Positions 46,901-61,950 of a DNA stretch of 64,000 nucleotides are shown here, piece after piece. The stretch comes from an uncultured Holophagales bacterium (GTDB lineage: Bacteria > Acidobacteriota > Thermoanaerobaculia > Multivoradales > UBA5704), in assembly GCA_963842525.1 (NCBI GenBank), contig CAWJGT010000003.1, positions 384,001-448,000 on the forward strand, in the 5' to 3' direction. The notes beneath the pieces are model-generated. The model was not told the DNA's origin. It saw only the letters and a program-made list of their open reading frames with translations, and did not search any database. Both the position numbers and the translations under genes were made by a program. The number at the start of each line of letters is the position of its first letter. Positions within the stretch are counted from its first letter, which is position 1.

Positions 46901-49630
46901 CCGGCAACGGCAAGGTGGACAGAGCCGCCCTGCCGGCGCCCGAGCTGCGGCCCGCCGGCTCGTTCGTGCCCCCCGCAACTTCGGCCGAGCAGGCGCTGGC
47001 CGAGATCTGGCGCGAGCTCCCTGGGCGCCGAACGGGTGGGCTCCGCCGACAACTTCTTCGCGCTCGGCGGCGATTCGGTCCTGAGCCTCCAGGTGGTCGG
47101 CAGGGCGGCGCGCGCAGGGCTCCATCTGACCGCGAGCCAGGTCTTCCAGCAGCAGACGCTCGGCGAGCTCGCCGCTGCGGCCGCCGCCGCCCCGTCCGAC
47201 GACGGACCGGTGCCGGTCCCGCGCGACCGCGACCTGCCTCTCTCCTACGCCCAGGAGAGGCTGTGGTTCCTCGATCAGTTGGCCGATGGCAGCGCCGTCT
47301 ACAACATCCCCAGCGCGGTGCGCCTCGCAGGACCGTTCAATATGGCGGTGCTCGCGCGCAGCCTGAACGAGGTGGTGCGGCGCCACGAGGCTCTGAGGAC
47401 GACCTTTCCGGAGGCCGGCGGGCGGGCGCGCCAGGTGATCGCCGGCTCCCTGCGTGTGGCGATCCCGGTTATCGACCTGCGGCGGCTGCCCGCGAGCGGC
47501 CGGAGCGAGGAGGTCGAGCGGCAGGCGCTGGCGGCAGGGCTCTATCCCTTCCGCCTCGGCAGCGAACCGCTGCTGCGCGCGGTCCTGCTACGGCTGGACG
47601 CCGAGGAGCACGTGCTGCTGTTCACCATTGCGCACATCGCCAGCGACGGCTGGTCGATGGCTCTGCTGGTGCGCGAGGTCGCGACGCTCTATGCCGCGTT
47701 CACGGCCGGTCGCCCCTCGCCGCTGCCGGAGCTGCCCTTGCAGTACGCCGATTTCGCGGTGTGGCAGCGCCGGTGGCTGCAGGGGGACGCCGCGGCGCAG
47801 CGTCTCGCCTACTGGACGCGGCGGCTCGCCGGCTCCGCCTCCCTCGAGCTCCCGGCCGATCGCCCGCGTCCGCAGCGCGCCACGTTCCGCGGCGCCAGCA
47901 GGAGCTTCGACCTGCTGCCCGCGCTCGCCCGGGAGGTGAGGGCCCTGGGCGCGCAGCAGGGGACCACCCTGTTCATGACCCTGCTCGCTGCCTACGGTGC
48001 ATTGCTCCACGTGCTCTCCGGCCAGAACGACGTCGCAATCGGGACCGATGTGGCGGAACGCAGCCGTCCGGAGATCGAAGGGCTGATCGGATTCTTCGTC
48101 AATCAGCTCGTCCTGCGCCTGGACCTCGGCGGCGATCCCACGTTTGCCGAGCTGCTGCAGCGGACCCGCGCCATCGCGCTCGAGGCGTTCGATCATCAGG
48201 GCATCCCCTTCCAGCACCTGGTGGAAGCCCTCAAGCCGCCGCGGCGCCCCGGCCGGCAGCCTTTCTTCCAGGTCAAGCTCGTCCTGCAGGCAGCCCCGGG
48301 GGACGACCGGCCTCCGGAGGAAGGGGACGGGCCGGGCCTGCGCGTGAGCGCCCTCGACCTGGAGTATGGGATCACGCAACTGGACCTCATCCTCTTCGTC
48401 TGGGAGCGCGGCCAGGACCTGCGATGCACTCTTCAATATGCGCGCGACCTGTTCCTGCCGGCGACGATCGACCGGATGATCAGGTTCTTCGTCAGGTCGC
48501 TCGAGCGCGCGGTCGCCGAGCCGACGACCCGGCTCAGCGCCCTCGGCGCCGAGCTCGAAAACGTGGACCTGGAAACCAGAGCCAAGGAGACAACGATGCA
48601 ACAGGGACCCAGCAAGTTCAAATCCATCAAGCCGAAAGCGGTCAACCTCTCGCAGCGGCCGGTCGTGTCGCTGGAGCCGCACGGCGACAAGGGGCTGCCG
48701 CTGGTCGTGCAACCGGCGGCCGAGAACGTGGACCTGGCCGACTGGGCCGCGCACAACGGACAGCTCCTCGAAGACAAGCTGACGCAGCATGGGGCGGTCC
48801 TCTTCCGCGGTTTCGAGATCGACTCGCCGCCGGTGTTCGAGCGCTTCGCGGGGGCCATCTGCCGCGAGTTCTTCAGCGAAAACGGCGAGCACCCCAGGAC
48901 CTCAGTCAGCGGCAACGTCTATACGCCGGTCTTCTATCCGCCCGAAAAGCAGCTCCTGTGGCACAACGAGAACTCCTTCAACCATCGTTGGCCGCGCAAG
49001 ATCTGGTTCGGCTGTGCGCGGCCCGCCGACACCGGCGGCGAGACGCCGGTCGTCGACAGCCGCCAGGTCTACCAGCGCATCAGCCCGGCCCTGCGAGAGA
49101 AGTTCGCTTCCCGGAAAGTGATGTATGTGCGCAACTATGGCGGCGGGCTCGGGCTCGACTGGCAGACGGTGTTCCAGACCGACGACAAGGCCAGGGTGGA
49201 GCAGGTCTGCCGTGACAACCGGCTCGAGGCCGAGTGGAAGGACGGCGACCGCCTGCGCACGCGTTGCGTCAGACCGGCGGTGGTGAAACATCCCCTGACC
49301 GGCGAGATGGTGTGGTTCAACCAGGCCCAGCACTGGCATGTCTCCTGCCTCGATCCGGCCACCCGCGAATCCATCTCGACGCTCTTTGCGGAGGAGGACT
49401 TTCCCAGGGCCTGCTACTACGGGGACGGCTCGCCGATCGAGGACGCGGAGATGCGGGAGATTCTGGACGTCTACCGGGGCCTGGAGGTCAGCTTCCCCTG
49501 GCAGCGCGGCGACGTGATGCTGGTCGACAACCTGCTGGCCGCCCACGGCCGCAACGCCTTCGCCGGTGAGCGCAAGATCATGGTGGTGATGGGCGACATG
49601 ATGAGTTTCGACGAGGTCGAGTGCTCGTGA
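40963..49630 (+). CDS. Megasynthase 3: KS-AT-ACP-Cy-A(Cys)-PCP-C-TauD dioxygenase, about 2888 aa after correcting a +1 frameshift at ~47019
   Basis: ATG at 40963 with GGAG at 40953-40956, overlapping the previous stop. KS QTACSTS; AT GHSVG and HAFH; Cy [14 protein letters not shown] and [10 protein letters not shown] code DLYNLSLIWK; PCP GGDSV; C AHIASDG; TauD WHNENS and HGRNAF. Confidence 0.92.
44070..47180 (+). other. Heterocyclisation module Cy-A(Cys)-PCP with no oxidase domain (thiazoline)
   Basis: DxxxxDxxS Cy motif and Cys code. The A8-A10 region is uninterrupted, so there is no Ox insertion. Confidence 0.85.
48596..49630 (+). other. TauD/TfdA Fe(II)/2-oxoglutarate dioxygenase domain (SyrP-like beta-hydroxylase), fused in frame and preceded by its own RBS and ATG
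   Basis: [12 protein letters not shown] facial motif, [17 protein letters not shown] and [15 protein letters not shown] at 48584-48589 lies 6 nt before an in-frame ATG at 48596. Confidence 0.88.
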
Positions 49631-49649
49631 GCCGGGGCGCGGATAGGGG

Positions 49650-61600: not shown

Positions 61601-61950
61601 ACAACTACCCGGCCGGCGGTCCGTTAACGCGTTCAGGCGGCAGTATGGCGATCGCCGAGGTGCGCGAGCTGGAGGCTACGAGCTATGCCCTCGACCTCAC
61701 CGTGGCCGCCACCGGCGGCGAGCTGTCGCTGCGGATCATGTACGACCGCAGCCGCTTCGGCGGTGAAGAGATCCAGGAGCTGGTTGGCTCGCTCCTGGCC
61801 CTGCTCGCCGCGATGACCGAGCGGCCGGAAGGGCGGCTCAGCGACTGCCTCGCCGCTCTCGCGCAACGCCGCCCGAGCGAGCTGGCCGTGCATCGTTTCA
61901 AAGCGGTCAAGCCCAAGGCCGTCACCTTGCTGGAAGAGGAGGCGAGATGA
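49650..61950 (+). CDS. Megasynthase 4: I(C-like)-A(Asn)-PCP-C-A(Gly)-PCP-C-A(Thr)-PCP-E-C(DCL), about 4099 aa after correcting a +1 frameshift at ~50817
   Basis: The N-terminal C-like domain has LPALCADG in place of HHxxxDG. A codes DLTKVGEVGK, DILQLGLVWK and DFWNIGMVHK; PCP GGDSI; E motifs HHLVVDGVSW, EGHGRE, RTVGWFT and FNYLGQ; terminal C IEDIYPL...HHLVIDGWS. Confidence 0.92.
59160..60450 (+). other. Epimerisation domain acting on the Thr module
   Basis: Canonical E motifs after a GGDSI PCP, followed by a DCL-type C domain. Confidence 0.88.

Follow-up and report, generated by a model that had tools for sequence, protein, structure and literature searches.

A lysine-rich peptide that occurs twice in the DNA analysed here, a 64,000-nt stretch from an uncultured Holophagales bacterium (the window), belongs to a conserved short motif that is restricted to one kind of NRPS junction, that at which a subunit ending in a C domain, or a hydroxylase attached to it, hands over to a subunit beginning with an I domain. 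Our proposal, held with about even confidence, is that both peptides represent one disordered motif that docks onto the I-domain subunit; we infer both that the motif binds and that the I domain is its partner.

In the proposed mechanism, an intrinsically disordered, basic peptide with the consensus hydrophobic-K/R-x-hydrophobic-[KR]-[KRP]-[KRQ]-A-[VIM]-x-[VL] marks the hand-over in modules that are split, with the C domain on the upstream subunit and I-A-T on the downstream subunit. A polar spacer would separate the motif from the last C domain, or from the TauD hydroxylase at whose N-terminus it sits, and the motif would bind the next subunit through its I domain, which is acidic and catalytically dead. 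Once bound, it would keep the C domain and any hydroxylase beside the carrier-bound amino acid.

Two copies of the motif in the window

A six-frame translation of the whole window contained exactly two matches to FK..KPKAV.L, at 48617–48649 and 61897–61929, and both lie in coding frames of lysine-poor NRPS genes. Six-frame regular-expression scans of the whole window for KPKAV, K.KAV.L and KP[KR]A[VIL] gave no match outside the two copies, in agreement with the original prediction, which had seen the motif nowhere else in the window. Its coordinates for the two peptides, 48611–48649 and 61891–61929, were exact on re-translation, and its description of a lysine-rich peptide in lysine-poor proteins was correct: lysine makes up 0.55–1.8% of the NRPS reading frames of the window. 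With lysine this scarce, two copies with three lysines per eight residues each are not a matter of chance.

Copy 1 (48617..48649, plus strand, as are all features described below) is contained in the translation of 48551–48709, in the C-to-TauD linker of gene 3. It lies between the Condensation match (residues 302–739) and the TauD match (residues 795–1087) of ORF 46328–49630, and aligns with the linkers or leaders of 21 other TauDs. Copy 2, FKAVKPKAVTL (61897..61929), is in the C-terminal tail of gene 4, where the translation of 61801–61980 ends in ELAVHRFKAVKPKAVTLLEEEAR and the stop. It finishes six residues ahead of the stop of ORF 50749–61950 and is in register with 10 other tails that link a C domain to a following I domain. 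The placement of copy 1 in the C-to-TauD linker and of copy 2 at the C-terminus of gene 4, with an I-domain subunit next in both cases, is as originally predicted.

The copies are identical at 9 of the 11 motif residues, whereas the adjoining C domains are 31% identical over 495 columns, and the DNA of the copies carries synonymous differences, e.g., CCG/CCC, AAA/AAG and GCG/GCC. The synonymous changes, together with the retention of 9 of 11 residues between such diverged flanks, argue for conservation and not for recent copying. When the 9.95-Mb genome was scanned in six frames with a motif matrix, the two window copies, both of them in the training set, ranked as the top 2 of 19.9 million positions. 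In the same scan, 280 positions scored 14 bits or higher; most of these lie in non-coding frames rich in Arg, and only the top four are informative.

Genes and domains around the copies

The last C domain of gene 3 (47231..48544; PF00668, E 3.9e-101) is of the catalytic HHxxxDG type, with the active-site stretch AHIASDGWS. A polar, charged linker follows (48545..48616; pLDDT <50 in the AlphaFold2 model), in which an in-frame ATG at 48596 has AAGGAG ahead of it at 48584–48589. Beyond copy 1 is a TauD-type Fe(II)/2-oxoglutarate beta-hydroxylase domain (48710..49630; PF02668, E 5.5e-48), and the stop codon of the gene occupies 49628–49630. TauD residues H138, E140 and H332 were invariant in an alignment of 22 sequences; we take them to be the Fe(II)-binding facial triad (His-x-Asp/Glu...His) of the TauD fold. 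The C-TauD portion of gene 3 is one open frame, 46328–49630, and the hydroxylase is thereby fused after the C domain at the C-terminus of gene 3 if a frame switch at 46.3–46.8 kb is read through.

Gene 4 has an I domain at its N-terminus (49650..50970; PF00668, E 4.3e-36, profile positions 5–320 of 456), followed by A-T, and the end of TauD is 20 nt upstream. Full read-through of this gene requires a frame switch between 50819 and 50857, within the I domain, where the tblastn HSPs fall in two frames. There are five frame switches in the window, and this cluster is possibly decaying or badly assembled. The last C domain of gene 4 (60505..61863), also of the catalytic type, precedes copy 2. After copy 2 come the LEEEAR codons and the stop (61930..61950), which overlap the start region of gene 5, both its ribosome-binding site (GAGGAGG) and its ATG, the latter in an ATGA overlap. 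Gene 5 begins with an I domain that reads LRLPALCADRRS (61947..63266; PF00668, E 3e-39, profile positions 5–323 of 456), and an A domain (AMP-binding) comes next; no hydroxylase lies directly ahead of this I domain.

The I domains of genes 4 and 5 (I4 and I5) have LPALCAD where HHxxxDG aligns, as do four further copies in the same genome. The conserved EGFRLSPQQ of I domains starts about 5–20 residues from the start codon, so that there is no room for a separate N-terminal docking domain. The A domains that follow I4 and I5 are 51% identical, compared with 37–48% to most others. At 51%, the identity is too weak to support loading of the same residue by both.

Recurrence of the motif at I-domain junctions

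A sample of 79 loci was fetched by I-domain alignment and comprised 39 I-type domains lacking HH and 40 ordinary C domains; the 39 I-type loci carry variants of LPALCAD at the HHxxxDG position. At seven of these 39 loci a fused C-TauD protein is followed by the I domain, and the motif is in the linker. At 13 of the 39 the I domain follows a stand-alone TauD, which in all 13 cases has the motif in its N-terminal leader; the upstream NRPS is readable at 12 of these 13 loci and in all 12 ends in a C domain plus a motif tail. At eight of the 39 a C domain with a tail lies directly ahead of the I domain, as in gene 4, and the motif is present in 8 of 8. The remaining loci have a C-TauD further upstream with an intervening ORF (3 of 39), a TauD in unclear context (3 of 39) or no readable upstream NRPS (5 of 39). 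A junction consensus, L-K-S-V-[RK]-[RP]-K-A-V-S-[VL], is common to the three architectures.

Scored by eye, the motif is present in every one of the 12 C-TauD linkers in which the stretch before TauD is readable; these are the seven directly before an I domain, those of loci L018 and L022, two from the window's own genome and one from a cyanobacterial plasmid. The tails that stand directly before an I domain with no TauD keep the full motif, including A-V-x-L, at the eight loci and in this window. In total, 13 junctions from at least three phyla have a C-domain tail followed by an I domain and keep the motif in register, and TauD-less motif tails recur in the Cyanobacteriota, the Acidobacteriota, the Myxococcota and the window's own genome. 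In that genome, seven further junctions have motif-like tails followed by an I domain or TauD, and the motif is absent from those C-terminal C domains that are not followed by an I domain or TauD. One of the tail-then-I junctions of this genome, C34:294820, has no TauD within 380 kb. Its contig C13 carries a stand-alone TauD with a motif-bearing leader and no I domain nearby. On a Vibrio harveyi plasmid, a TauD is without a basic leader and the next NRPS is without an EGFRLSPQQ-type N-terminus; thus the motif is not universal to all NRPS-associated TauDs.

With a leave-one-out matrix, 36 of the 49 context-defined sites reached 8 bits or more, several sites scoring low. The 12 control tails, which precede ordinary N-terminal C domains, all stayed below 8 bits (maximum 6.1), and the motif was seen in none of them. 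We also scored the C-termini of 150 representative proteins, the best-listed matches to an 842-aa C-TauD query, a set that is dominated by giant multi-C NRPSs, that includes only five C-TauD fusions and in which the downstream gene is invisible. Here 10 bits or more were reached by 3 of 39 C-termini ending in a C domain and by 1 of 111 others, so the motif is too degenerate for the strict matrix to serve as a detector.

The original prediction had proposed asking whether the motif goes together with downstream I domains. It is enriched there, being present in 12/12 C-TauD linkers, 13/13 leaders, 12/12 NRPS tails ahead of a stand-alone TauD and 8/8 tails directly before an I domain, and in 0/12 control tails. 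These results bear out the view that the two peptides of the window are homologous to each other and represent a short linear motif that looks functional and is tied to I-domain junctions. FKxxKPKAVxL, put forward as a new motif, did prove to recur, but as a widespread family feature with a looser pattern ([KR][KRP][KRQ]-x-hydrophobic).

Predicted disorder and a predicted complex

In an AlphaFold2 model of the leader plus TauD (mean pLDDT 87.7), residues 1–27 and 29–32 had pLDDT <50, and copy 1 corresponds to residues 23–33. In a model of the gene 4 C domain plus tail (mean pLDDT 80.2), the chain was ordered to about residue 472 and had pLDDT <50 at residues 476–500, copy 2 being residues 484–494. 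The motif is thus predicted to be disordered beside TauD and beside the C domain in cis, and is not predicted to pack on either.

Modelling of the peptide with the I domain had also been suggested in the original prediction. A complex prediction with I5 as the receptor and the 45-residue gene 4 tail gave a weak pass, with a median score of 0.49 (0.49, 0.48 and 0.54) and a best control of 0.01; this was graded as weak support. With another chain in place of the I domain, the controls scored 0.00. The I5 runs shared at least 57% of their contacts, with a partner pLDDT of at least 51. The mark for a pass is reached by 116 of 157 solved complexes and by 2 of 215 mismatched pairs, but scores of 0.60 or less account for only 18 of the 157 solved complexes and for both passing mismatches. 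By the tool's own guidance, more weak passes are false than true unless the pairing was likely beforehand, and the score says nothing of interface or contacts. Further, I-type domains are more acidic than ordinary C domains, with a net charge per 100 residues of -4.4 versus -2.8 (38 vs 38, Mann-Whitney p 5e-6), a difference confounded by taxonomy.

Alternative explanations

The motif might be functional and yet have some other partner, a reading we regard as rather unlikely. The partner could be the hydroxylase, with the NRPS tail recruiting TauD in trans, or the downstream T domain, or the upstream C domain of another protomer; or the peptide could be a flexible basic tether. If C and TauD are encoded separately, the NRPS tail has kept chiefly the N-terminal half of the motif and the basic cluster, and the leader of the stand-alone TauD has kept the basic cluster and A-V-x-L-S-x-E-x-L, which would fit a contact between tail and TauD. 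The orphan TauD of contig C13, with its leader, could serve TauD-less junctions such as that of gene 4 and gene 5, and the weakness of the I-domain complex pass also leaves room for another partner. A hydroxylase as partner is, however, hard to reconcile with the full motif in tails that directly precede an I domain and have no TauD, or with the junction at C34:294820, which has no TauD within 380 kb. Neither TauD nor the C domain is predicted to be packed on by the motif in cis, and the signal in the complex predictions vanished when the I domain was replaced.

The gene 4 copy could instead be a functionless scar, in which case deletion removed the TauD of a C-TauD ancestor and left the start of the linker before a new stop. 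This possibility had been raised in the original prediction, and the I-domain tree gives it some footing. In that tree, 42 I-type rows are split from 2 ordinary C domains (SH-aLRT 95); I5 is grouped (SH-aLRT 91) with I4 of the window and other I domains that come after fused C-TauD proteins, and tail-context I domains are scattered, with 8 inferred changes. The grouping of I5 and the scatter make repeated TauD loss plausible, but 23 of the 41 inner branches are unresolved in this quick search, so the history of TauD loss or gain is not readable from it. The ribosome-binding site of gene 5 accounts for LEEEAR, the residues that come after the motif. A scar should nevertheless decay, and the motif is kept in register at all 13 junctions with a C-domain tail and an I domain, in at least three phyla. 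It is also kept in the 12 NRPSs ahead of an intact stand-alone TauD, and between copies 1 and 2 its residues have outlasted synonymous change, with neighbouring C domains down to 31% identity. Given the recurrence of TauD-less tails across phyla and the retention of a copy by both partners where C and TauD are separate, we disfavour the scar and consider it improbable.

A signal at the nucleotide level is far less probable still. In a genome of 73% G+C, the A-rich Lys codons might keep the mRNA open for translational coupling or for an internal start, with the encoded peptide incidental. The positions of the copies would suit such a role, copy 2 being 18–50 nt ahead of the ATGA overlap with gene 5, and copy 1 lying 19 nt past an in-frame ATG that has a perfect, correctly spaced AAGGAG ahead of it. 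But the peptide, hydrophobic positions included, is kept in low-G+C cyanobacteria, arginine-coded versions exist (RRKAV, RRQAV), and most fused linkers have no nearby start codon. The nucleotide-level explanation was rejected on these grounds.

Comparison with known systems

Beta-hairpin docking domains bind a short C-terminal peptide of the upstream subunit, as in TubB/TubC, the rhabdopeptide protein Kj12 and PAX. The C-terminus of gene 4 is similar: it is a short tail, predicted to be disordered alone, whose proposed partner is the N-terminal region of the following subunit. Those peptides come after a T or E domain, whereas the gene 4 tail comes after a C domain. The receptor proposed here would be a whole C-like I domain of about 440 residues, whereas beta-hairpin docking domains have 60–70 residues in an alpha-beta-beta-alpha-alpha arrangement. 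A further difference is that the motif described here is also found inside a protein, in the C-TauD linker, and as the N-terminal leader of a tailoring enzyme. At the end of the glycopeptide NRPS assembly line, P450s are recruited via the folded interface of the X domain, which belongs to the C-domain superfamily but is catalytically dead. The X domain resembles the I domain as proposed here in being a dead C-superfamily platform for enzymes that act on carrier-bound substrates, and differs in its folded P450 interface and in its place at the end of the line and not at a split C/A junction; to our knowledge, no basic linear motif takes part.

The I domain with an integrated beta-hydroxylase architecture (C-TauD / I-A-T) was reportedly described for siderophore NRPSs by Reitz et al. 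(2019, PNAS). Genes 3 and 4 are like that architecture, gene 3 having the C-TauD end and gene 4 a C-like start without the catalytic His pair, then A-T. In the literature consulted on the siderophore I-domain architecture, there is no mention of the C-TauD linker motif or of the TauD-less junction between a C-domain tail and an I domain; Reitz et al. (2019) itself may describe them. Searches of the main texts in a limited literature collection yielded no paper describing the motif. The program antiSMASH 8 carries profiles for the I domain and the integrated beta-hydroxylase (PMC12230676).

The same junction as that studied here is found in myxoglucamide biosynthesis, in MxgA (ACP-C-Ox) and MxgB (I-A-PCP...), where an LCL-type C domain and a C-terminal 2-oxoglutarate dioxygenase are followed on the next subunit by an I domain without the second His; GlmF, in glidomide biosynthesis, also has an I domain (PMC13638107). 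The MxgB I domain proved dispensable in vitro when the C-Ox protein MxgA coupled hydroxylation with condensation, in assays that used excised domains and addressed catalysis, not docking (PMC13638107). The words 'linker' and 'docking' each occur 0 times in that paper.

Several observations run against docking as the function of the motif: the C13 TauD has a motif-bearing leader with no I domain nearby; the motif is degenerate, with several context-defined sites scoring low; the complex pass was weak; and the MxgB I domain could be dispensed with in vitro (PMC13638107). In the three-gene architecture, there are two motif copies for one I domain, an arrangement that a simple one-site model does not explain.

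A broader version of the docking reading, which we hold to be possible but doubtful, is that the I domain and the basic tail suffice as a pair to dock the subunits of modules split between C and A, with the I domain mainly a docking receptor and TauD an optional passenger that is inserted after, or carries, the same tag. If this is true, the existence of I domains without any hydroxylase and the in-vitro dispensability of one I domain would be explained, and engineers would have, in tag and receptor, a portable pair with which to divide modules at the C-A boundary and to tether tailoring enzymes.

The 2026 study found one I domain to be dispensable for hydroxylation and called for more biochemistry (PMC13638107). 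A conserved, transferable peptide at the hand-over, predicted to be disordered, makes the role of I domains accessible to simple experiments. In sum, if the motif does dock onto the I-domain subunit, this would explain how modules split between C and A stay assembled and would account for I domains that have no hydroxylase. It would also give better genome-mining rules for subunit order in such clusters, and a new docking pair for NRPS engineering.

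The motif copies and their setting

The genome comprises 9.95 Mb in 34 contigs with a G+C content of about 73%, and the window (G000:C3:384001-448000) contains a large lipopeptide-type NRPS/PKS cluster. Gene 3 (40945-49630) encodes KS-AT-ACP-C-A-T-C-TauD, gene 4 (49650-61950) encodes I-A-T-C-A-T-C-A-T-C-tail, and gene 5, from 61947, begins I-A. In the N-terminal C-like domains of genes 4 and 5 (I4 and I5), LPALCAD replaces the HHxxxDG of catalytic C domains; the missing HHxxxDG is the published hallmark of interface (I) domains, according to PMC13638107. The first copy of FKxxKPKAVxL (48617-48649) is in frame within the translated segment 48551-48709 of gene 3, between a Condensation match ending at residue 739 and a TauD match starting at residue 795 of the ORF 46328-49630. 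The second (61897-61929) lies at the gene 4 C-terminus, translated from 61801-61980 as AVHRFKAVKPKAVTLLEEEAR followed by a stop, with six residues between motif and stop.

These translations match the peptide positions of the original prediction, and its remark that the motif was not seen elsewhere in the window held in a six-frame regex scan of the whole 64 kb, in which FK..KPKAV.L, KPKAV, K.KAV.L and KP[KR]A[VIL] found two sites only. It had also described a Lys-rich motif in Lys-poor proteins, and the NRPS reading frames indeed hold 0.55-1.8% Lys. The C domains preceding the copies share 31% identity across 495 aligned columns, the motif itself is identical at 9 of 11 residues, and its DNA copies show synonymous third-position differences. 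From these differences and the Lys-poor frames, chance and recent copying were excluded as sources of the two copies, which, to judge from sequence, have the pattern of a short conserved element within diverged flanks.

Several other features of the locus were noted. The stop codon of gene 4 and the start codon of gene 5 share an ATGA overlap (61936-61950), and the GAGGAGG formed by the Glu codons of gene 4's terminal LEEEAR is probably where ribosomes bind for gene 5. Within gene 3, at 48584-48598, a perfect AAGGAG stands 6 nt before an in-frame ATG, seven codons 5' of the motif. Starting there would yield a stand-alone TauD whose N-terminus resembles relatives' separate TauD genes, so this segment may be a gene-fusion relic or an internal start. 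GC3 frame plots and stop maps revealed five frame switches in the long NRPS genes (5850-6300, ~9450, ~29250, 46328-46800 and 50819-50857, the last inside I4), and at the junctions both frames stay open; the switches reflect either indel errors of the draft assembly or a decaying cluster.

Junctions in the same genome

Further I-type N-termini were located by tblastn with the two I domains, and the sequence upstream of each was translated. The preceding NRPS ended in GLKSGRRQAVVVTGK at C3:527024, LARARRRVLVDQPVS at C3:590246 and VVRRAQRRLVPVTES at C3:1539936, and at C34:294820 the tail contained SFKDRRRRMVMAV ahead of the stop. At C9:1595848 the tail MLRSVKPRAMQVGLDLA was followed by a stand-alone TauD (N-terminus containing FNRTIGAKPKSLWLS) and then the I domain; at C23:118908 two TauD genes stood between the tail RFARRQRRPLS and the I domain. 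TauD paralogues without an I domain after them (C34:678405 and C9:1617634) had no basic leader, both beginning at the conserved LPL(V/I) core, and by eye the basic tail was absent from C-terminal C domains followed by neither I nor TauD, e.g., C3:504407, C9:1615611 and C9:1624930.

Two observations concern copies elsewhere in this genome. At G000:C13:16630-17745 (locus L001) is a stand-alone TauD whose leader, LKKLGIPARRAVSLSQEDL, carries the motif, although its neighbours are non-NRPS genes and there is no I domain close by; this TauD could serve TauD-less C-tail/I junctions in trans. Near-identical NRPS C-terminal segments occur ~10.5 kb apart at C3:516467-516500 and C3:526980-527024. The 516.5-kb copy has its tail motif, LRSGRRQAVVVTGK, out of frame with the C-domain ORF, which ends in GVEDDRLSS; this implies that the frame shifts immediately ahead of the tail.

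Junctions in other genomes

Species-representative genomes were queried with six aligned I domains, giving 79 loci from Acidobacteriota, Cyanobacteriota, Myxococcota, Chloroflexota, Actinomycetota and others. The active-site column divided these into 39 I-type loci and 40 with ordinary HHxxxDG, the latter serving as internal control. A fused C-TauD with the motif in its linker preceded I at 7 of the 39 I-type loci. Stand-alone TauDs with motif leaders, e.g., SVRRKAVSLSSEELVKT and NIKRKALSVSTEKLIKT, preceded it at 13; the NRPS upstream was readable for 12 of these and was in every case C plus tail, e.g., RQKLKSIKRKVVTA, SGIQKLKMAKRKVMKSLK and ERKFMKVKRKSISG. At eight loci C plus tail, e.g., KKLMKVKPKAMKLAE, LKSLKKARRRAVATQN, LRLRSMRRKAIDLSS and LKKLQRVRRQSVRVS, directly preceded I with no TauD. 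The remainder had a C-TauD farther upstream with another ORF between (3/39), a TauD in unclear context (3/39) or no readable NRPS upstream (5/39). The tails aligned in register with the gene 4 tail, and the TauD leaders and linkers with the gene 3 linker. This arrangement recurs on an annotated cyanobacterial plasmid, plasmid C of Trichormus variabilis ATCC 29413, where a 'condensation domain-containing protein' carries the linker FQKLATIKPQTFRL ahead of its TauD part; two genes downstream is the start of an I-type NRPS. A Vibrio harveyi plasmid TauD had neither a leader nor an EGFRLSPQQ-type neighbour, indicating that the motif is tied to this I-domain lineage rather than to every NRPS TauD.

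As to intervening genes, two different ORFs of unknown function (595-628 residues) lie between the C-TauD and I-type genes at L017 and L022, and a shared SFDFWIIPY ORF type is directly upstream of an I-like domain at L064, where the active-site position has one His only, and at C9:1584676 of the window's own genome.

If C and TauD are encoded separately, both sides of the break carry the motif, with its basic cluster duplicated and a different half of the flanking consensus kept by each copy (L019, L026-L029, L031, L036, L043, L044, L057, L062 and L068, and C9:1595848 in the window's own genome). In the NRPS tail the N-terminal half is retained together with the basic cluster; the TauD leader retains this cluster and A-V-x-(V/L)-S-x-E-x-L-(V/I)-K-T. 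Fused linkers have a single full copy, and tails meeting an I domain directly retain the A-V-x-L part too.

A position matrix built from 49 context-defined sites had the consensus L-K-S-V-[RK]-[RP]-K-A-V-S-[VL]. The proposed association with downstream I domains was borne out: leave-one-out scores were at least 8 bits in 36/49 sites and at least 14 bits in 28/49, a partly independent measure, the registers having been picked with the full matrix, and of the 12 tails that precede ordinary N-terminal C domains, none reached 8 bits (range -15.7 to 6.1). In 150 representative NRPSs among the matches listed, scored on their C-termini, at least 10 bits were reached by 3 of 39 with at most 90 residues after a complete C domain versus 1 of 111 others; several more of the 39 had visibly related tails. 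This matrix is a strict one, and the motif that it scores is degenerate.

Structure and complex predictions

The AlphaFold2 model of the gene 3 linker plus TauD (22-row alignment) had a mean pLDDT of 87.7, with residues 1-27 and 29-32 below 50; the motif occupies residues 23-33 and the first strand begins at 39. For the last C domain of gene 4 plus tail (23 rows) the mean was 80.2, and residues 476-500, which include the motif (484-494), were below 50. The models thus predict that the motif is held by neither cis neighbour, TauD or C domain, as would suit a linear motif awaiting a trans partner. Complex prediction paired I5 (39-row alignment) with the C-terminal 45 residues of gene 4 (11 rows) and gave scores of 0.49, 0.48 and 0.54 (median 0.49; best of three controls 0.01), classed as 'weak support', with contact agreement between runs of at least 57% and partner pLDDT of at least 51. 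Of the 157 solved complexes in the benchmark, 116 reached this mark, as did 2 of its 215 mismatched pairs; the passes at 0.60 or under comprised only 18 of the 157 and both of the passing mismatches. Among loci L011-L089, I-type domains were more negatively charged than ordinary C domains from the same query (mean net charge of -4.4 vs -2.8 for every 100 residues, 38 domains in each group, Mann-Whitney p 5e-6), a comparison confounded by taxonomy.

Discussion

We conclude with high confidence that C-(TauD)-I junctions share this motif as a conserved feature of their family, predicted to be disordered alone and retained with or without TauD. The original prediction of a docking motif upstream of both I domains is partly supported: the element is real, conserved, junction-specific and probably a docking element; for binding itself, the complex prediction, at 0.49, gives 'weak support'. 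We put the chances at roughly even that the motif acts by docking, in which case it would tether either the upstream subunit or the hydroxylase to the subunit that carries the I domain. The main rival is a functional motif with a different partner (TauD, the carrier domain or else a C domain). For the I domain of MxgB, PMC13638107 reports that it is dispensable in vitro. As to a TauD that gene 4 may once have carried, I5 grouped, in a quick, poorly resolved tree, with I domains following fused C-TauD proteins (SH-aLRT 91), and tail-context I domains were scattered, with eight inferred changes of which strongly supported branches force one only. The other proposal of the original prediction, that the gene 4 copy is purely a deletion scar, is a weak one: a scar predicts neither the two-sided motif of split genes nor the A-V-x-L of direct tails. 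A signal at the nucleotide level is likewise a weak explanation.

Full-text searches of the accessible literature gave no description of the motif; the works consulted were PMC7100376, PMC12971057, PMC12230676, PMC10212144, PMC13638107 and preprint 10.64898/2026.07.24.740629. The founding I-domain paper (Reitz et al. 2019) may mention the linker. In sum, the motif probably belongs with the docking and recruitment elements of NRPSs.
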